28,687 nucleotides of DNA. Origin: a virus. Its lineage: Duplodnaviria > Heunggongvirae > Uroviricota > Caudoviricetes. Shown here in pieces: positions 5,185 through 16,541 of this stretch (its first letter is position 1; every line of letters starts with the position of its first letter). The stretch lies in IMG/VR virus record IMGVR_UViG_3300046820_000635. One strand, 5' to 3'. The notes under the pieces are model-generated. The model worked only from the letters and a program-made list of their open reading frames with translations, was not told the DNA's origin and made no database searches. The position numbers and the translations under genes were made by a program.

Positions 5185-5213
5185 TTGAAAAGCAAGAACA
5201 TTTTTGCTAAAAT
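5185..5213 (+). promoter_or_regulatory. sigma70 promoter TTGAAA-17-TAAAAT (extended TG); probably leaderless transcript
   Basis: -35 at 5185-5190, -10 at 5208-5213; ATG only 5 nt downstream, with no SD. Confidence 0.75.
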
Positions 5214-5218
5214 ACAAT

Positions 5219-6121
5219 ATGAAACGCATTCTGATAACAGGCATTGATGGATTTTTTGGAAGAAACCTAGTTGATGCATGGATAAACAAGTATGAACTGA
5301 TTGGTATAGATCTTCCTCCACAACTGTTTGATCAAGAAAATACAGCATGGCATCACAGTATCAATCATATTGATATTCGAGAAGATCCTAGATATTATAA
5401 AGAAATACTAGACGGGGTTGATACTGTAATACATTGTGCTGCAAAAACTAGAATAAATCCCAGTTGGAAAGACTATGCTGACTATTATTCTACCAATATT
5501 ACAGGCAGTCAGAATCTCTTAAAGATCTCTCAGGAGATGGGTGTACAGCGGTTTGTTCACTTTAGCAGCAGCAGTGTCTATGGCAACAGTCTAAAGCAAA
5601 TGTCGGAGAGTGATGCACTTGCTCCAACAAATCCCTATGCTATCAGTAAACTAGCAGCCGAAATGGCATTACGAACTCAGGCACAGATAGGTAATACTGA
5701 ATTACTAATAGTTAGACCCTTTACCATGTATGGGGAACACATGAACTTTGGCATGTACAGTTTAGCCATAGCCAAGTTCATCAAGGCCTGCATCAAAGAT
5801 GAGCCTATTCTATTAGAAGGTGGCGGAACACAGTACAGAGATTTTATACATGCATCGGATGCAATACAGGCTCTGGAGTTGATTTTGGAAAACGGACAAG
5901 CTGGAGAAACCTATAACATAGGCACTGGCAATCACATTACTATTAAAGAATTAGCAGACATAGCAACAAACAAGCAGATAGTAACAGATCATCGTTTGGG
6001 GCCAGTTTATGGCACATGGGCAGATATTTCAAAGATTACAGCTTTTGGATTCAAGCCTACCATAAAGGTAGAGCAATGGTTGACTGAACAGATTAAAAAC
6101 ATTAAACTGAATGCTTTATAA
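5219..6121 (+). CDS. NAD-dependent epimerase/dehydratase (extended SDR)
   Basis: GIDGFFG Rossmann motif, SSSSVYG, YAISK catalytic YxxxK, RDFIHASD, YNIGTG. Start re-called at ATG 5219. Confidence 0.92.
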   Translation: MKRILITGIDGFFGRNLVDAWINKYELIGIDLPPQLFDQENTAWHHSINHIDIREDPRYYKEILDGVDTVIHCAAKTRINPSWKDYADYYSTNITGSQNLLKISQEMGVQRFVHFSSSSVYGNSLKQMSESDALAPTNPYAISKLAAEMALRTQAQIGNTELLIVRPFTMYGEHMNFGMYSLAIAKFIKACIKDEPILLEGGGTQYRDFIHASDAIQALELILENGQAGETYNIGTGNHITIKELADIATNKQIVTDHRLGPVYGTWADISKITAFGFKPTIKVEQWLTEQIKNIKLNAL

Positions 6122-6757: not shown

Positions 6758-7143
6758 TGGAATACGAAACAGGTAAGATTGACAAGGGCTGGGGATTTGA
6801 ACTGGCCTTTGCCAACAACGAAATGTACAGCGGCAAGCTATTGGTGTTTGAACGTGCGGGTGCAAAGACCAGTATGATGTTTCACAAGGAACGTTCTAAG
6901 ACTTGGTTCATTAACGAAGGTAAGTTTAAACTTACCTATATTGAGACAGTATCGGGTAAGGTATTAGAACATGTGCTTGAAGCAGGTGCAACAACTACTA
7001 TTTCTAAAATGAGTCCGCATCAAATAGAAGCACTGGAACCTAACTCAATCATCTTTGAAGTAGGCACAGGTGACGTTGGTAATACAGATCGTATTAGACT
7101 TGCACCTGGTGATACTCAAACGCAGACACTAGAGCAGCAATAA
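6757..7143 (+). CDS. Cupin-fold protein (mannose-6-phosphate-isomerase-like phage family)
   Basis: [17 protein letters not shown] pattern and a PHQIEALE second cupin motif; TAATG overlap with clpP. Confidence 0.7.
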
Positions 7144-8305
7144 GATCCTCGATCATTCCATCATCGTGTAACGGAGTAGGTACTAAACGTAACCGCTCCG
7201 TTCCCACATCAACTGTTGGAAAGTTTATCGCTTGGCAATAAATGTTATGTTCGTTCAATAGTGTATCGCTAATAGCCTTACACTTTTTAGCATCTCCTAC
7301 AAGCACTGGAACAATATGAGTAGTAGAACAATTCATTACGTGAATTCCATTCTTCTCTAATCTATGCTTTAACTTTCGAGCACGTTCTTGATGTTTCTCT
7401 CGTAGCTCGTTATGCTCTTTTAGATATTTGACAGCAGCAAGGGCGCCTGCACAGGTTACAGGGCTCATACTTGTTGTAAAAATGAATCCAGCAGCAACAC
7501 TGCGGATAGCATCTACAATATCTTTATCGGCAGCAATATAGCCACCTTGGACTCCGAAAGCTTTGCCTAGGGTACCATTGACTATGTCGACCCTATCTTG
7601 TAAGCCTAGCTCTTCTAGCTTACCACCGCCATGTTCTCCGTAGAGTCCTACTGCATGTACTTCGTCAATGTAGGTCATTGCTCCATACTTATCTGCTAGA
7701 TCGCATATCTCTTTGATGTGTCCTACATCACCGTCCATACTGTATACACTTTCAAAAACAATACACGGTACCTTGTTACACAGTTGAGCAGCTTTCAAAC
7801 AGTCTTCTAAGTTATCCATGTCGTTGTGTCTGAATACTTGTTTGCTTGCACGACTGTGACTCATACCAACAATTAAACTATTATGATTCTTACTGTCACT
7901 GATAAACTCAATATCTGGAATAATTTTAGCCAGTGAAATCAAAGTCCATTCATTCGCAACATAAGCACTGCTAAACAATAGAGAACCGCTCTTGCCATGC
8001 AACTGTGCAAGTTCGTATTCTAGGGCAACATGATAATGACTGGTACCTGCAATGTTACGTGTGCCACCTGATCCCGCCCCAGTCATGTCTAGGGCAGTAT
8101 GCATAGCATCTAGAACTACTTTGTTTTGGCCCATGCCTAGATAATCGTTTGAACACCAGTTTGTAATGTTCTTGATAGCGTAAGGCCCGTACCAAATGGC
8201 CTGAGGAAACTTACCATTTTCACGCAGAATATCGTTAAACACACGATATTTGCCTGTGTCTTTTAGATTTTTGATTAGGTCTGTAAAGGGTTTCTTGTTG
8301 ATCAT
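7094..8305 (-). CDS. hemA: 5-aminolevulinate synthase (PLP-dependent, Shemin/C4 pathway), 403 aa
   Basis: [51 protein letters not shown] (PLP lysine). Start re-called at ATG 8305. Confidence 0.92.
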
Positions 8306-8313
8306 AGTACGCA

Positions 8314-8329
8314 TATTTAAGCATAAATA
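8314..8329. promoter_or_regulatory. Back-to-back divergent TAAATA boxes (minus 8319-8314 for hemA; plus 8324-8329 for the 8349 operon)
   Basis: Sequence tatttaAGCAtaaata lies between divergent genes. Confidence 0.7.
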
Positions 8330-8348
8330 TTCAATCGGAGATTTTATT

Positions 8349-8753
8349 ATGGATATTGTACAGCTAGATGTACCGCTTTTTATTAGGCTTTTAGAACTAG
8401 CCCGCGAAGACATTAAACAAGATGCAGATATACACGATCTTGCGCAGAGAGTTATTGAGCTCAGCAAGAATGGTCCTGTAGACATGGCCAGCTACGATGA
8501 TCTAGTAGGATTTATGAACAAGCAGGGTAAGTCATCAATGAAAGATGAAGATTTTTATAATGATGATATTCGTAGATTCCGACAGATTGTTGATCTAGCA
8601 GACAAAGGTGAATACACCGAATACACAAATACTCCTAAAGAAGAGTATGCAGGTATTGAAAGTGTAACTACAGCAGCCGGTGGCGGCCCAAACGAGCCTA
8701 AACATGTAGATGATATTAGAGGCAGCAGTTTTAGAATACACGGGAGAAACTAA
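8349..8753 (+). CDS. Conserved phage hypothetical protein ([21 protein letters not shown]...), 134 aa
   Basis: GGAG SD at 8337-8340; start re-called at ATG 8349 so that it does not overlap hemA. Confidence 0.8.
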
Positions 8754-10901: not shown

Positions 10902-11520
10902 CAGTAAGTTTGACGCCAACGGCTATTGGGACAAACCTGTAGAAAAAATAGTTTATCTGCCTACAGCAGAAGACGTTGCTCTATTTGATCAAAATGGCTA
11001 CGATCTAACTGATTTAGAAAAGCATTATGCCTATAGCAACTGGAACAAGCCCAAGAAACATAGAGAACATCGTACAGCGCTTAAACAGTCTTGGTTCGTA
11101 CAAGACTACACTGTAGAAGGTGCTGTTCTTAATCACAGTCTACTATTTGAACGTAAAGGGTACACAGGTGCTGCACTAGAAGAACTGCAATACTGGGCAC
11201 GATCTTTACCTTTAATACATAAAGTTATTGCACTTCGCCCTAAATGGGGATTGGACTTTAGCATGGACTGGGCCGATACCAACGGCAATGCTTTTGAAGT
11301 CCTACATTGGGAGTGGGATAGTTTCAACTACGAAGAAATATGCGCAGTTAAAGAAACTATTGAACCTATCTTGTTAGCTATGGATTGGCAGGATGCAGGA
11401 CAGAATATCCTGGCTAAGAAAGATCAATGGTACCATCTAGACTTCTTTGGACAGAGCCGATGGAAATGTGAATACTTTGGTATTCCAGAAGAAAGATTTA
11501 AAATGGTTGCTTGGAAATAA
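10879..11520 (+). CDS. Conserved phage hypothetical protein (213 aa)
   Basis: ORF track; globular, aromatic-rich sequence (FDQNGYDLT, WGLDFSMDW). The exact start is uncertain. Confidence 0.8.
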   Translation: MSNVIITDSKFDANGYWDKPVEKIVYLPTAEDVALFDQNGYDLTDLEKHYAYSNWNKPKKHREHRTALKQSWFVQDYTVEGAVLNHSLLFERKGYTGAALEELQYWARSLPLIHKVIALRPKWGLDFSMDWADTNGNAFEVLHWEWDSFNYEEICAVKETIEPILLAMDWQDAGQNILAKKDQWYHLDFFGQSRWKCEYFGIPEERFKMVAWK

Positions 11521-11523
11521 ATA
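11518..11523 (+). promoter_or_regulatory. TAAATA box 5 nt before the SNase ATG
   Basis: TAAATA-cacat-ATG, with no SD. Confidence 0.7.
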
Positions 11524-11528
11524 CACAT

Positions 11529-11963
11529 ATGAAAAAACTATTACTATTATTACTGGCAATACCTGCAATGGCATTTGCACAGAAAACACCTCAGGGCGTT
11601 ACTTATGATGCACAGATTTTAAAAGTCAGTGACGGCGACACAGTTGTGATTGCAGCACCTTTTCTACCTGCTCCGCTCAAGCCACAACTTGCTGTTAGAA
11701 TCTTCGGAGTTGATACTCCGGAAAAAGGATTTAGAGCCAAATGTGAAAGTGAAAATCAAAGAGGTCTTGCAGCCAGCGAGTTCACTAAAAATGCAGTTAA
11801 AGCTAGTACACAACGACAGGTCATCTTATATGATTGGGATAAGTTCGGTGGCCGCGTGTTGGGAGATATCATTTTAAATGGTCAAAGTCTTAGAGCTATG
11901 TTGATAGCTAACGGATTTGCTCGTGAGTATTACGGAGAAGCAAAAGGTAGCTGGTGTAACTAA
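11529..11963 (+). CDS. Secreted thermonuclease (SNase/micrococcal nuclease family)
   Basis: Signal peptide MKKLLLLLLAIPAMAFA; DGDT, VRIFGVDTPE, DKFGGRVLG motifs. Confidence 0.88.
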   Translation: MKKLLLLLLAIPAMAFAQKTPQGVTYDAQILKVSDGDTVVIAAPFLPAPLKPQLAVRIFGVDTPEKGFRAKCESENQRGLAASEFTKNAVKASTQRQVILYDWDKFGGRVLGDIILNGQSLRAMLIANGFAREYYGEAKGSWCN

Positions 11964-11964
11964 A

Positions 11965-12843
11965 ATGAATATTGTAGTATCTCAAGTATTTGCGCAACTA
12001 TGCGAAGGGCTGATTTCCGAAGCCAGTTCTTCGTTGTCTTTGGTAAAAACTATTCCCGGTGGCAAAGAAGTTATAAAGTATTTGCATACTAACAGCGATC
12101 TATCACATGATCAAGAATATCGTCCAATAATGAAGATTCAATGGAGCGAGTTAAAAGATGAGCGTTATGGTTCTTGGGTCATTATACAAGGTGACAGAGG
12201 TATAGGTGCTATTAGATCAAAGAATGGTTCTTATACTGCAATCGCAAGTACGGGCGGAGATGTACAGACTTTTAGAAATGATCGAGGTGGAAACATTATA
12301 GATTTTCTTAAAGGACAGGTCGGCCAGCTTCGTAAGTTTTATGTTGGCCCCGACAAAAACAGTGCTGCATTACTTAAGAAAGCAAGAGCCAAACAGCAAC
12401 AATCTCCTACAGCTCCTATAATCGATCAAGATTCGCTAGTTAGAAAGTTTAAACCGTTATGGTTAAAAGCAGTTCGTGCGGCACAGGCCGATATTAAAGG
12501 TATGGTTGCTAACATGATTAAGAATGATGCGTTTGATAAAGCCAAGCGTAAACTTAACATGTTAGAAGAACTAGAAGGCATTGCCAGTTCAATCGAAAGT
12601 GGCGACAATATAGACAACTATGCTCCTATTGTTCGTGCCGTAGGTAATGCACTTACACTGGCAGCAGGATATCACTATCCAGAACAGACAGGTGAAATAT
12701 CAAGAGGACGTTATGGTGACAATCATCTTACTTCAACAAATGGAGAGGGTCGTCGCTTGCTAATAAAAGATATTTCAAATGGAGATCAAGCAAAACTCAG
12801 CAGTGTTTTAGCTTTCTTTAAGAGGAACTTGATCACAGGATGA
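11965..12843 (+). CDS. Hypothetical protein, possibly virion-internal (292 aa)
   Basis: Start re-called at ATG 11965, just after the SNase stop; ATGA overlap with the next gene. Confidence 0.75.
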   Translation: MNIVVSQVFAQLCEGLISEASSSLSLVKTIPGGKEVIKYLHTNSDLSHDQEYRPIMKIQWSELKDERYGSWVIIQGDRGIGAIRSKNGSYTAIASTGGDVQTFRNDRGGNIIDFLKGQVGQLRKFYVGPDKNSAALLKKARAKQQQSPTAPIIDQDSLVRKFKPLWLKAVRAAQADIKGMVANMIKNDAFDKAKRKLNMLEELEGIASSIESGDNIDNYAPIVRAVGNALTLAAGYHYPEQTGEISRGRYGDNHLTSTNGEGRRLLIKDISNGDQAKLSSVLAFFKRNLITG

Positions 12844-14033
12844 AACTCAAACAACTAATAGTAGAAGCCAATGTAGCTTCAAAGGTCTTGAAAGACCCTA
12901 AGATGACTAAGATGTTAGCCATCGCATTTAGACATGACAATACATTACCCAAGTCTGCGATTGCTAAGTTAGGTCCACGCCCAACTGATCAAGAAGCTGT
13001 TACACTCTGGAGTGAGTTAATAGACGGTGTATTGAGTAATAACACCTATGGCGATCTCAGCAGAGATGGTAAGTTCGACGACTGGCTATTAAGACAGTAT
13101 GTCAACGGTATTGCAGACTATGAAGATATCAGCGGAGAAGGTGGAGATGCACTAGGTGCATGGAAAGCTCTAAGCACCCGCGGCAAACTAAAGCCTGCTG
13201 ATCAAGACTTTAATAAGTTTAAGAGCATAAAACAGTTGCAGCGTATTCGAAACGATAGACAGTATCGTCAAGAACTAGACCGTATCAAGGATCAAGAACA
13301 CATTGAAAGAATGAAACGTGAAGCCAAAGAAGTTGTTATTATTGACAACGACCGCTTCCGTGTTATTGTTCCTTTGAACTACGGTAGCTGCTATTCTACA
13401 GACAAGTCCGGCGGATACATTCCTAACTTCTGTACAGGATCTAGCAGTGGAGCGCAATGGTTTGGTCGTTATGCACCAGACGGTATGATCGTTAACGTTG
13501 TTGATAAGTCAAACATTGAAGATGTTGACGGTAAGTGGCAGTTCCATGCTGCAACCAATCAGCTTGTTCGTGGTGACCAAGAACGTAGACACGACATTCC
13601 CTATAACGATAGACGCTTTGCTGAGTTGTTCCCGGGCCTTATGAAAGATATCATTTCCGGAATACAGGCCAAAGGCGAAGAGATCAAAAGCGGTTCGACG
13701 GAGATTGTTCCGGGCGGATACGACATTGCCAAAGAGATTGATCTGATCAAAGGCAAGTATCCTTTATCAGTTGCATCCGGTGAAAAGGATGAAGATCCTG
13801 AACAGCAAGACGAGCCACAACAAGAGCCAGAGCAGGACCAGCCACAACAGCAAGACGAGCCACAACAAGAGCCAGAGCAGGAACAACCTGCAATGAGAAC
13901 TTTTAATGTAACTCAACTTGCTAGCGGCAGATCCGCTCGTATCGAAGCTAGAGACTTAGCACATGTTCAACAGCGTGTATTGCAACGCTACCCCAATTCT
14001 ACAATCGACGATTATACGTGGGAAGAGGTTTAA
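12840..14033 (+). CDS. Hypothetical protein with a Q/E/P repeat linker, possibly virion-internal (397 aa)
   Basis: ORF track; N-terminus MKLKQLIVEA; acidic repeat linker before a short C-terminal domain. Confidence 0.85.
   Translation: MKLKQLIVEANVASKVLKDPKMTKMLAIAFRHDNTLPKSAIAKLGPRPTDQEAVTLWSELIDGVLSNNTYGDLSRDGKFDDWLLRQYVNGIADYEDISGEGGDALGAWKALSTRGKLKPADQDFNKFKSIKQLQRIRNDRQYRQELDRIKDQEHIERMKREAKEVVIIDNDRFRVIVPLNYGSCYSTDKSGGYIPNFCTGSSSGAQWFGRYAPDGMIVNVVDKSNIEDVDGKWQFHAATNQLVRGDQERRHDIPYNDRRFAELFPGLMKDIISGIQAKGEEIKSGSTEIVPGGYDIAKEIDLIKGKYPLSVASGEKDEDPEQQDEPQQEPEQDQPQQQDEPQQEPEQEQPAMRTFNVTQLASGRSARIEARDLAHVQQRVLQRYPNSTIDDYTWEEV
13801..13882 (+). repeat. In-frame tandem duplication: 37-nt exact repeat with 45-nt period (QQDEPQQEPEQ x2)
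   Basis: aacagcaagacgagccacaacaagagccagagcagga occurs at 13801-13837 and 13846-13882. Confidence 0.95.
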
Positions 14034-14036
14034 AGA

Positions 14037-14133
14037 TCACACTACCTTAGGAACGCTTTGCGTTACAAGTGTGGCCCGGCTGCTGGGCAGAGGATTATAG
14101 GAGTCGTGCCCTGGAATGATCCTCTAAGTGAGC
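14037..14133 (+). ncRNA. Candidate structured non-coding RNA (three stem domains); family not identified, strand uncertain
   Basis: CACACU/AGUGUG enclosing an AACGC/GCGUU hairpin; a GCCCGG/CUGGGC hairpin; an AGAGGAUUAU/AUGAUCCUCU stem. GC-richer than typical intergenic DNA here, with no ORF. Confidence 0.55.
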
Positions 14134-14141
14134 ACTAATAC

Positions 14142-14166
14142 AAAAAGCCCCTTTCGGGGCTTTTTT
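14142..14166. terminator. Bidirectional intrinsic terminator
   Basis: AAAAAGCCCC-TTTC-GGGGCTTTTT between convergent transcription units. Confidence 0.92.
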
Positions 14167-14854
14167 ATGACTTGAACAAGTACTTCTTATGTAAATGTAA
14201 TCTTGCTTGATTGTACTGAACAGCAGTGATAACTAACGCTGCGGCCCAAGGTACTACAGCAGCAGCCCAAGATGCTAGTCCTGCCCACCAAGCAACTAAC
14301 AGGGGTTCTTTCATTAACATTAAGAACGCAACAGCAAATAATACAAACGATCCAACAAACACAGTATCTGGCCAACGTTGTAAAATCTTGCTGACTAATG
14401 TAGCACCAAACAGGATGATTGGTACACTGATCAATAGACCGGCAATGATTAGTACAAAGTTTCCATTAGCGGCAGCGGCAATACCTAGTGCGTTATCGAT
14501 CCCCATAACAGCATCAGCAACAACAATAGTACCTATAGCACCCCAGAACGTATCTTTGGCTTCGATATTATGTTCGCCTGAATCAAACACAAGTTTCCAA
14601 CCAATCCACACAAGTGCTGCCGCACCAATAGCACGTAGGCCCGGAATCATTAACAAGTAGGTTAGCGCCGCAACTGATACAAAGCGTATAGCAATGGCAC
14701 CAAAGGTACCCCAGAAGATTGCCTTCTTACGTAAGTGATCCGGTAGTTTATTAGCCGCCATTCCGATAACAAGAGCATTATCACCAGCTAATACAATGTC
14801 TATCAATATGATAGCAAGAAATGCCCAGAGGGCTTGAATCGAAAATAACTCCAT
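14165..14854 (-). CDS. terC: TerC/Alx-family (YjbE-like) membrane protein, probable Mn2+ homeostasis (229 aa)
   Basis: IILIDIVLAGDNALVI and ADAVMGIDNALGIAAAA (the paired TerC metal motifs), multiple TM helices; AAGGAG SD at 14866-14861. Start re-called at ATG 14854. Confidence 0.92.
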   Translation of the reverse strand: MELFSIQALWAFLAIILIDIVLAGDNALVIGMAANKLPDHLRKKAIFWGTFGAIAIRFVSVAALTYLLMIPGLRAIGAAALVWIGWKLVFDSGEHNIEAKDTFWGAIGTIVVADAVMGIDNALGIAAAANGNFVLIIAGLLISVPIILFGATLVSKILQRWPDTVFVGSFVLFAVAFLMLMKEPLLVAWWAGLASWAAAVVPWAAALVITAVQYNQARLHLHKKYLFKS

Positions 14855-14870
14855 GAGAGTCTCCTTAAGA

Positions 14871-14976
14871 ACTGGTCTTGCCAAGGACCTATTCCCCTGA
14901 TACACCGGACACTGTTTGCTCAATGTCGTGTTGACGATGTAAAAGACCTACAGTGTAGGCAGGCTACTCCCCATAA
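14871..14976 (-). ncRNA. yybP-ykoY manganese riboswitch
   Basis: Minus strand reads UAUGGGGAGUAGC-[CCUAC/GUAGG]-UACAUCG-UCAACACG-[ACAUUG/CAGUGU]-CCGGUGUA-...-UUGGCAAGACCA. This contains the GGGGAGUAGC, CGUCAA and GCAAGACC hallmarks and sits directly upstream of a TerC gene. Confidence 0.92.
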
Positions 14977-14978
14977 AA

Positions 14979-14984
14979 TATTTA
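14979..14984 (-). promoter_or_regulatory. TAAATA box immediately 5' of the riboswitch
   Basis: Overlaps the TAA of the HAD gene; the aptamer starts a few nt downstream. Confidence 0.7.
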
Positions 14985-15566
14985 GTTGGTTGTTATGATG
15001 TCGTAAATCTCTTTCCAGTTCTTTGCGATATTATAGTTACAGGCATGATGCATATTATGTCCGTGCTCTACTAGAATACTGCGTAGACCCAATCGATGTC
15101 CTAAATCGGCATTCTCAGGCTTATCCTCAATCCAAAAAAGTCCGCTATCTTCGTACGGTTCGAGGGCATCGTCTTTGTCTGCACCTGTATCCAAACATAT
15201 AACACTTTCGATAGCATTGCCGAACAGTTTGCGTAGATTCATTTTACGTAGTTTGCCTGCATTTACATCTAGGCTAAGACTGGTAATCACACGGAACTGA
15301 TATCCATATTCTTCATGTAGTCGTTTGACATAGTGAACACTATCTCTCAATGCAGGTAAGAAACCAATGGCAGCTGATTCATTAAAAATCTTAACTAGCT
15401 TTTTAATATCGTCTTTGGTAGTACCAAGATAGTGATGATGTAGGCTGTATTGATCTTTGCCCTCATCGTTGAAAATATGACCGTGTTCTAGCATCCATAC
15501 ACGGAATGCCCATTCCCAGTCTAAGAGTACACCGTCTGCGTCTGTGAGTATAAGTTTGTTGCTCAT
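14982..15566 (-). CDS. HAD-superfamily phosphatase, 5'(3')-deoxyribonucleotidase-like
   Basis: Motif I TDADGVLLDW, motif II VITS, motif IV WIEDKPEN. Confidence 0.85.
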   Translation of the reverse strand: MSNKLILTDADGVLLDWEWAFRVWMLEHGHIFNDEGKDQYSLHHHYLGTTKDDIKKLVKIFNESAAIGFLPALRDSVHYVKRLHEEYGYQFRVITSLSLDVNAGKLRKMNLRKLFGNAIESVICLDTGADKDDALEPYEDSGLFWIEDKPENADLGHRLGLRSILVEHGHNMHHACNYNIAKNWKEIYDIITTN

Positions 15567-15793
15567 GTAAAAGCCTTGTAAAGTCCAAATAATCCTATCA
15601 GCAACGAAACAATATTAACTACGGCTTGCGGTTTATTAGATACCCGTACAGCCCATGTTAAAAACAATATAGTACCGATAGCAAATACAACAATATTCCA
15701 TGGGTATGTTGCAGGACCTATGCTGTTAAAGATGTGGCCCAAAATAATGAAACCTGCACCTAGCCACTGTAGTGCGTCGTTAAGTTTTGTCAT
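15563..15793 (-). CDS. Small 3-TM membrane protein (76 aa)
   Basis: Three hydrophobic segments; ATGA coupling to the HAD gene. Confidence 0.75.
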   Translation of the reverse strand: MTKLNDALQWLGAGFIILGHIFNSIGPATYPWNIVVFAIGTILFLTWAVRVSNKPQAVVNIVSLLIGLFGLYKAFT

Positions 15794-15801
15794 AGTTGCT
15801 T

Positions 15802-15830
15802 ATTGTAACATAGATCAAATAAGTTGTAAA
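15802..15830 (-). promoter_or_regulatory. sigma70 promoter TTTACA-17-TACAAT
   Basis: -35 at 15830-15825, -10 at 15807-15802; ATG 8 nt downstream. Confidence 0.7.
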
Positions 15831-15832
15831 TA
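15827..15832 (+). promoter_or_regulatory. TAAATA box 4 nt before the desaturase ATG
   Basis: TAAATA-cttg-ATG, with no SD. Confidence 0.65.
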
Positions 15833-15836
15833 CTTG

Positions 15837-16541
15837 ATGAATACAATATTAGCAACTCTAGTAATGACGCACATTACTATTATCTGCGTGACCCTGTTTT
15901 TACATAGATCACAAACACATAAAGGTGTGACCTTTCACCCAATAGTCAATCACTTTTTTAGATTATGGTTATGGCTCACAACAGGTATGGTTACCAAACA
16001 ATGGGTAGCAATACATCGTAAGCATCATAGGTACAGTGATAATCCCGGTGATCCTCACAGTCCTAGCGTCTACGGAATATTTAGAGTCCTGTTCAAAGGG
16101 GCAGGTTTGTATCACGCTGCCAGCAAAGACACTGAGATGATAAAACAGTACGGAGTAGGTACTCCGGACGATTGGCTAGAGCGCCGAGTTTATACTCCAC
16201 ATAGTCGGTTAGGGATCATAATCATGTTGATCATAGACCTTGTTCTTTTTGGCCCGATAGGTTTAATAGTGTGGGGTATACAAATGTTATGGATACCCTT
16301 TTGGGCAGCAGGAGTAATAAATGGAGTCGGACACTGGACAGGTTATATTAATGGTAATTCAAAAGATAATAGTCGCAATATTAGTCCTATTGGTATTATT
16401 ATTGGTGGCGAAGAACTTCATAACAATCATCACTTAGATCCTGCAAGTCCTAAGTTAAGCAGACGTTGGTTTGAGTTTGACATTGGCTGGTTCTATATTA
16501 AACTTCTAGAACGATTTAAGTTAGCAACTATTCGACCATAA
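15837..16541 (+). CDS. Membrane fatty-acid (acyl-CoA delta-9-like) desaturase, 234 aa
   Basis: Three His boxes HRSQTH, HRKHH and HNNHH, plus GEELHNNHH and WFEFDIGW. Start re-called at ATG 15837. Confidence 0.92.
   Translation: MNTILATLVMTHITIICVTLFLHRSQTHKGVTFHPIVNHFFRLWLWLTTGMVTKQWVAIHRKHHRYSDNPGDPHSPSVYGIFRVLFKGAGLYHAASKDTEMIKQYGVGTPDDWLERRVYTPHSRLGIIIMLIIDLVLFGPIGLIVWGIQMLWIPFWAAGVINGVGHWTGYINGNSKDNSRNISPIGIIIGGEELHNNHHLDPASPKLSRRWFEFDIGWFYIKLLERFKLATIRP

Follow-up and report, generated by a model that had tools for sequence, protein, structure and literature searches.

A widespread phage RNA with a 3′ pseudoknot and conserved loop bases complementary to the H69–H71 region of 23S rRNA

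The window analyzed here, i.e., the whole stretch of 28,687 nt, is, by gene content, part of the genome of a large tailed phage, and its relatives are IMG/VR contigs of sizes up to 355 kb. It carries genes for a DNA ligase, a methyltransferase, virion proteins, a ribonucleotide reductase, TerC and a desaturase, and its auxiliary genes include those for a nucleotide-sugar epimerase (5204-6121), a class I/II aminotransferase (7094-8485), an SNase-like nuclease (11511-11963) and a fatty-acid desaturase (15720-16541). The RNA element described below follows an ORF whose 397-aa product has no Pfam or PHROG match; in this protein, a 45-nt direct repeat (13786-13875, 84% identical) encodes a Q/E/P-rich linker of variable length. 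On the other side lies the convergent TerC gene (14165-14990, minus strand), the leader of which displays yybP-ykoY-like motifs and gives no Rfam match at gathering score. The named organisms nearest to this TerC are mostly Polynucleobacter, which is only a hint as to the host. The features of the locus are the following:

12840..14033, plus strand: upstream ORF of 397 aa (stop codon 14031-33), whose 3′ UTR carries the RNA
14034..14037, plus strand: short, purine-rich linker from the stop codon to P1, putative processing site
14038..14073, plus strand: stem P1 (14038-43/14068-73), around the L1 guide and the optional hairpin P1a (14052-64)
14042..14052, plus strand: L1 guide, 11 nt, perfect complement of 23S rRNA 1923-1933 (3′ strand of H69 and H69/H70 junction)
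14052-56 with 14060-64, plus strand: inner hairpin P1a
14074..14088, plus strand: stem P2, 4 bp (14074-77/14085-88), with the 7-nt loop L2 (14078-84)
14089..14125, plus strand: stem P3 (14089-98/14116-25), long and variable, with a bulge on its 3′ side
14099-101/14110-12, plus strand: inner stem of P3, presenting loop L3 (14102-09)
14126..14133, plus strand: 3′ tail, paired with L2 in a pseudoknot (14079-84/14127-33, G14130 bulged)
14142..14165, both directions: intrinsic terminator, from sequence and fold, common to the side of the RNA element and to the convergent TerC gene

All the strands that a preliminary description of this DNA had named, among them those of P1, the inner hairpin and P3, are found at their positions, and so are the upstream stop codon and the separate terminator that it placed after the element. 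It had drawn P2 with 6 bp and a 3-nt loop, in which case P1 and P2 both use G14074; the stem has instead 4 bp and a 7-nt loop that pairs with the tail. The hairpin enclosed by P1 is indeed present in the window, and is an optional part that is missing from many copies of the element, while a long-range pairing of CUUAG (14046-50) with CUAAG (14124-28) is not conserved, CUAAG being there in only 13 of 181 copies. The stability of the fold in the window is marginal (z of -1.77, with 11 of 200 shuffles folding equally well), and for the minus strand stability does not exceed that of shuffles (z of -0.6). That the element is more than chance is thus indicated by its conservation and covariation in homologues, rather than by fold stability alone.

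Pattern scans of viral and metagenome contigs, once parsed, gave at least 181 distinct copies in uncultured phages, so that the element, previously called an orphan, belongs to a large phage family. Relatives of the 397-aa upstream protein mostly carry a recognizable copy right after their stop codon or after a short extra ORF. A covariance model found the copy of the window once, with a score of 78 bits, and the window contains no second copy or repeat of it. In five large phage records the same model found one strong copy in most and a second, degenerate copy in one, and in five bacterial records it found no convincing copy; complete genomes of 300-355 kb hold about one copy each. Some copies are reduced or altered: G004 carries, at 76939-77019 (L544:240-320), a copy that keeps P2, the pseudoknot and L3 and has lost the anti-H69 loop, together with a complete copy 190 kb away; L140 keeps P2 and the pseudoknot, with the anti-H69 loop lost and L3 degenerate; and in L067:3092-3190 and L443 the P3 loop is replaced by a sequence without an obvious 23S match.

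The absence of a match to known ribozyme and riboswitch classes, reported in the preliminary description, extends to Rfam, the comparison it had proposed: no Rfam model matches the window at gathering score, none covers the element at E ≤ 10, the weak matches in the window fall on the terminator, and divergent members are likewise without a match. BLAST of the element and of two IMG/VR homologues against GenBank phages returned only terminator or chance matches. We found no description of the RNA family in the openly accessible literature, and the large catalogues of candidate phage RNAs may list it unnamed. The element is a widespread, real phage RNA that belongs to no catalogued family.

Comparison of the homologues, which had also been proposed and for which copies proved abundant, supports the fold. 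In the pairing check, 99.3% of cells are paired and 75 cells carry changes on both sides, compared with 29-46% paired in slid controls. Three of the four P2 pairs covary freely, both sides having changed in 18-35 of 72 sequences. The pseudoknot between L2 and the tail shows compensatory changes in close relatives (L026, L037, L434, L526), and distant relatives use entirely different L2-tail pairs, such that L2 and the tail vary freely while the pairing is kept. Given that alignment A1 contains just two two-sided changes in the pseudoknot, the distant members carry most of the evidence for it. P1 and P3 vary in length and sequence with their pairing maintained. Because of this variation in length, RNAalifold recovered P2 alone from a MAFFT alignment, and the support for P1 and P3 comes from per-sequence folds (median z of about -1.3) and visible swaps rather than from column counts. 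The family therefore has a conserved three-stem fold with a 3′ pseudoknot. Regarding the strand of the RNA, the mismatch pattern favors the plus strand in P2 (G-U over A-C, 10:0) and at internal positions of P3 (15:2). This evidence is not uniform, given that the internal mismatches of P1 oppose it (A-C over G-U, 15:4) and that the folding energy of the whole element favors plus in only 103:78. The wobble pairs of P2 and P3 and the gene orientation given below favor an RNA read on the plus strand, the P1 mismatches do not.

The genomic surroundings of the copies point to the 3′ end of genes. Among the 119 copies having an upstream stop codon, 99 have it 3-13 nt before the L1 core, so that P1 begins almost at the stop codon. 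The upstream gene lies on the plus strand in 119 of 156 copies, and the upstream proteins of the copies listed belong to 40 unrelated clusters. A downstream gene on the same strand is found in 92 of 156 copies and in none of the other 64, and a convergent one in only 20; the downstream proteins of the copies listed fall into 36 clusters, at 1-121 nt. A TAAAT(A/T) box stands directly after the element in 58 of 156 copies, against a background of 4%, suggesting that the downstream genes have promoters of their own. In the window, there is no downstream gene for the element to regulate. The terminator at 14142-14165, which would halt minus-strand transcription ahead of the element, is not a conserved part of the family, being missing in copies L001 and L003; a regular-expression search counted terminators after 7 of 156 homologues, a crude figure that underestimates them, and a consensus terminator scan overlooked the hairpin visible at 14142-65. 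Such surroundings speak for a small processed RNA or an element of the 3′ UTR and against a leader, a riboswitch or a read-through signal, and of the possibilities raised in the preliminary description it is the small RNA or processed 3′ element that agrees with a conserved, covarying, plus-strand RNA located just after the stop codons of unrelated genes and having no conserved downstream gene. Stop-codon read-through or frameshifting was rejected, because the distance from stop to core keeps no fixed frame (36/51/32). The SNase gene is immediately 5′ of the RNA in seven homologous loci, and a very short ORF with a conserved PY(S/G)P-like motif at its end lies upstream of copies L020, L024, L038, L054, L064 and L217.

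We compared the element and its copies with the rRNAs of E. coli and Polynucleobacter (positions follow the standard E. coli numbering, from which the 23S copy used is offset by 3). The target sequence of L1 is identical in Polynucleobacter. The longest antisense match to 16S and 23S rRNA is 10-17 nt in 143 of 143 copies and at least 12 nt in 94 of them, a length attained by 53 of 3,000 shuffles, while sense-strand matches to rRNA in the same 143 copies never exceed 11 nt. Given that this set had been partly selected on the rRNA-matching motifs, the test was repeated on 95 copies for whose collection only the P2 loop and the tail had been used: the L1 core is found in 94 of these, its first 7 nt being exact in 89, and the commonest change in its first nine positions is A>G, which gives a G-U wobble against the rRNA, tied with C>A. 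A wobble test of near-matches to 17-mers comprised few cases and was uninformative. Across all 5426 E. coli genomes, the 5′ module of one homologue matches 23S rRNA only, and the extended L1 guides, of 17-23 nt, as well as L3, follow the rRNA. Opening L1 is computed to cost about 3.4 kcal/mol against -17.6 for the duplex, the cost of opening H69 and the 50S proteins being left aside. The family thus has conserved, unpaired bases complementary to the H69/H70/H71 region of 23S rRNA and, since these exposed bases complement helix 69-70, the RNA probably serves the phage in binding the large ribosomal subunit of its host.

A second guide appears to lie in L3, which consists of one of three unrelated sequences, matching 23S 1929-37, 1964-69 or about 1969-78. 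The L3 of the window is of the second type, its positions 14104-09 complementing 23S 1964-1969 over 6 nt only, a match that is weak alone: for types 1 and 3 only 1 of 78 windows of rRNA, the target itself, matches, for the 6-nt type 4 of 78 match equally, and the best computed duplex of this L3 lies elsewhere than the predicted target. Relative to rDNA, the L1 and L3 guides are in swapped order, indicating that the element is not a leftover rDNA fragment. Mixed polarity occurs in only one unrelated match and the rDNA order in only three. At the sequence level, the swapped order and the near-absence of mixed polarity point to selection for pairing rather than to a captured scrap of rDNA. Positions 14077-86 are in addition an exact complement of 16S 518-527 (530 loop), a match that is kept, as counted by eye, in about 42 of the 47 copies of the family that had been selected without L2, and is lost in divergent scaffolds. 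Because of this loss and of its sequestration in the pseudoknot, we treat the 16S match as an optional contact, and a pairing there seems doubtful. A match of the tail to 23S at about 1096-1103, of 7-8 nt only, was discarded, as it does not survive the covariation of the pseudoknot.

The anti-H69 segment also sits in several unrelated phage scaffolds, and none of its 76 matches is flanked by rRNA. These include a guide followed by a terminator hairpin, a terminator with an anti-H70 guide loop and a continuous guide by a tRNA cluster (L310:1724, L311, L314, L319, L354; L316, L352; L329, L356; L353; L309, L412). Some of the guide-plus-terminator forms have an AT-rich, -10-like hexamer 6-8 nt upstream, with no clear -35.

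On the basis of this complementarity, we consider it likely that the RNA binds 23S rRNA by one route or another, and we lean towards an action in trans on the 50S subunit. The reading that we prefer, by a modest degree of confidence, is that of a phage 3′-UTR-derived antisense RNA directed against H69/H70 of host 23S rRNA, which would act on free or assembling 50S subunits and block subunit joining. The element would be made as part of a phage mRNA, at its 3′ terminus, and an endonuclease cutting the linker that follows the stop codon would then release it, with P1 and the pseudoknot protecting its ends. The scaffold would present L1 and L3 for pairing with neighboring stretches of 23S domain IV, in the manner of kissing loops. 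The H69/H70 site is buried in 70S ribosomes (bridge B2a), hence the choice of free or assembling 50S as the target, on which pairing would start at the loops. In E. coli, translation is reported to be blocked by a PNA directed at H69 (Kulik 2017, cited in PMC12828698), so that, as far as this secondary account goes, binding at H69 should hinder subunit joining, and idle host 50S subunits might then be set aside. Their turnover would be favored and could provide nucleotides and phosphate to a phage that has its own ribonucleotide reductase. This specific outcome of block and turnover is rather doubtful. Besides the mixed strand evidence given above, the following points speak against the preferred reading: the guide of the window has only 11 nt and its L3 match only 6 nt; a lytic phage needs ribosomes, so that global inhibition would be costly; and the second copy of G004 (L544) and L140 keep the scaffold without L1.

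Other explanations share part of this evidence. If the element stayed on its mRNA as a 3′-UTR tether, it could catch the 50S subunit released at the nearby stop codon and keep it near phage transcripts, much as plant-virus 3′ elements bind ribosomal subunits. The rRNA complementarity counts equally for such an action in cis, and the tight spacing of 3-13 nt across 40 unrelated upstream clusters speaks for it, except that such spacing is usual in compact phage genomes; moreover, about one copy per 300-355-kb genome, behind changing genes, would serve one transcript only, and guide-plus-terminator forms, which may or may not follow a stop codon, exist. We regard this tether as unlikely. Somewhat more unlikely in our view is a protective shield, in which pairing with 23S would mask or remodel H69-H71 against nucleases of host abortive infection or starvation. 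The complementarity is identical for this explanation, a phage gains from intact ribosomes, and in the absence of protective factors the decay of rRNA takes place at the subunit interface, as described for 16S (PMC7913689). Against it, pairing over H69 would by itself be expected to hamper the joining of subunits, judging from the cited PNA result, and we found no literature on an anti-phage nuclease that cuts H69. It could also be that the minus strand is the functional one, the sense H69/H70 and 530-loop sequences borne by the reverse complement soaking up an rRNA-binding toxin or factor. The P1 mismatches, which favor A-C on the plus strand, agree with such a decoy. The wobbles of P2 and P3 favor plus, however, as do the upstream genes (119 of 156), with only 20 copies having a convergent downstream gene; in the window, the TerC terminator stands between the minus-strand gene and the element, and the minus strand lacks a better-than-shuffled fold, which makes the decoy very unlikely.

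The remaining explanations are weaker still. The preliminary description had also proposed a self-cleaving ribozyme, and the element, a compact pseudoknot of several stems with invariant bases in its loops and varied genes in front of it, could be a new one acting in the processing of the phage transcript. This found no support and is very improbable: no Rfam ribozyme model matches, the complementarity to 23S accounts for the invariant bases, the same guide is found in scaffolds too simple for catalysis, and L2 and the tail change freely so long as they pair. The pistol-like pairing of the P1 loop with a downstream CCUAA-type strand is not conserved, as is apparent from the rarity of CUAAG in the family, and there is no Rfam match to pistol. 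Nor is there one to twister or twister-sister, whose L4 loop and cleavage-site internal loop are not seen, the twister-like UUACAAG varying or missing. The nested double pseudoknot (P1-P4, P1.1) of HDV-like RNAs and the tRNA-adjacent position of theta are likewise not seen, the order being P1, P2, P3 with a single loop-tail pseudoknot and the window having no tRNA. An antisense RNA against host cold-shock (csp) mRNAs was considered because L1 and the tail also match the cspA codons for Gly-Pro-Lys and Ala-His-Phe, the top weak matches of the model in the Polynucleobacter genomes examined are the antisense strand of cspA, and csp-like genes are among the non-family matches of a homologue search. 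With E-values of just 0.02-0.09 for the model matches, a tail that is engaged in the pseudoknot and whose covariation departs from the csp match, and 17-23-nt L1 guides and an L3 that do not follow csp, this explanation is barely credible. In Polynucleobacter cspA (L547, L548), the antisense strand contains matches to the L1 core and to the tail whose order is the same and whose spacing is similar, a resemblance that is probably a coincidence. Equally hard to credit is a 5′ cis-regulator of the riboswitch type, or a site acting at the DNA level (homing-endonuclease target, att site or rDNA remnant). The same-strand downstream gene of 92 of 156 copies would suit the former, and the rDNA region concerned is the target of I-CeuI and R2, which would suit the latter. 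The 36 downstream clusters at 1-121 nt, the promoter-like box after the element and the lack of a downstream gene in the window argue against a cis-regulator, for which neither a consistent position upstream of related genes nor an expression platform was seen; the split and swapped rDNA halves, and stems that covary with G-U pairs, argue against a DNA-level site.

In its proposed mode of working, the RNA most resembles kissing-loop antisense RNAs and ribosome-associated noncoding RNAs. The conserved complementarity of unpaired regions to a defined target is that of a base-pairing antisense RNA. Kissing-loop RNAs (CopA/CopT of R1, RNA I/RNA II of ColE1, OxyS-fhlA) likewise have short, stem-closed recognition loops, and make two loop contacts on one target, as we propose for the phage RNA, which differs from them in being trans-encoded, in its complementarity of 6-23 nt, in its target, which is host rRNA where theirs are mRNAs or primer RNAs, and in its 3′ pseudoknot. 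Small RNAs derived from 3′ UTRs, of the CpxQ type, also start right after a stop codon, and the RNA of the window can share the mRNA terminator; in contrast to them, the phage RNA has no single parent gene or conserved terminator, its 3′ end is closed by a pseudoknot and its target is rRNA. The box C/D and H/ACA guides (snoRNAs and archaeal sRNAs) are similar in their short two-arm guides to conserved rRNA, whereas the two arms of the phage RNA have overlapping targets and do not flank a base; the consensus has no C/D, H/ACA or kink-turn motif, and the neighborhoods contain no conserved enzyme gene. Pistol, twister, twister-sister, hatchet, hammerhead and HDV-like ribozymes are also compact, pseudoknotted intergenic RNAs, often of phages, from which the element differs in topology and invariant bases and in the lack of a model match. 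With tmRNA, SRP RNA, SprF1 of S. aureus, which binds at the subunit interface, and Val-tRF of H. volcanii (PMC8938821), it would share the action of a small RNA on the ribosome itself, with no sequence or structural match to them in Rfam; the review cited contains neither “phage” nor “base pair.” The synthetic anti-H69 PNA (Kulik 2017, through its citation in PMC12828698) has the same target helix and there inhibits translation as an antisense agent; it is synthetic and linear, whereas the phage RNA is natural and structured and also covers the H69/H70 junction.

Chances seem evenly balanced that large phages of freshwater, marine and other habitats repeatedly evolved structured small RNAs that pair with 23S H69-H71 at the subunit interface, the subfamily of the window reaching also the 16S 530 loop through its pseudoknot loop, and hence both subunits. 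To our knowledge, antisense RNAs target mRNAs, primers and other small RNAs, and phages control ribosomes by proteins and tRNAs. If pairing of this kind is real, the RNA would regulate the ribosome as a natural antisense agent, determining whether host subunits are joined, set aside or degraded. A viral RNA pairing with the interface helix that is most conserved in bacterial ribosomes would give phages a new way of taking over the host and offer a natural template for antisense agents against the ribosome. Direct tests are feasible, given that E. coli and Polynucleobacter share the target sequence and that cultured Vibrio phages have the architecture.

These Vibrio members were found by querying GenBank phages with the 23S segment itself. 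PWH3a-P1, qdvp001, R16F, VnaP and 11895-B1 have the full architecture in unannotated intergenic gaps (qdvp001, L540:1489-1604; PWH3a-P1, L542:1489-1604; R16F, L549:302-416; VnaP, L550:291-404; 11895-B1, L551:282-396): the guide measures about 23 nt, the P2 loop pairs with the tail and the P3 loop is complementary to 23S 1929-36. The covariance model finds these copies at E-values of 8e-5 to 0.02. The two departures from rRNA complementarity in the guides of PWH3a-P1, qdvp001 and R16F are both compatible with G-U pairing. PWH3a-P1 and VnaP grow on V. natriegens, a laboratory host that is harmless. A degenerate-looking version in vB_VmeM-32 (L552) was missed by the covariance model, and borderline anti-H69 matches of 17-20 nt (E of about 8) are found in Staphylococcus phage SpP (L541:1501-1517, intergenic) and in an unannotated human-faecal phage record (L543:1501-1520).
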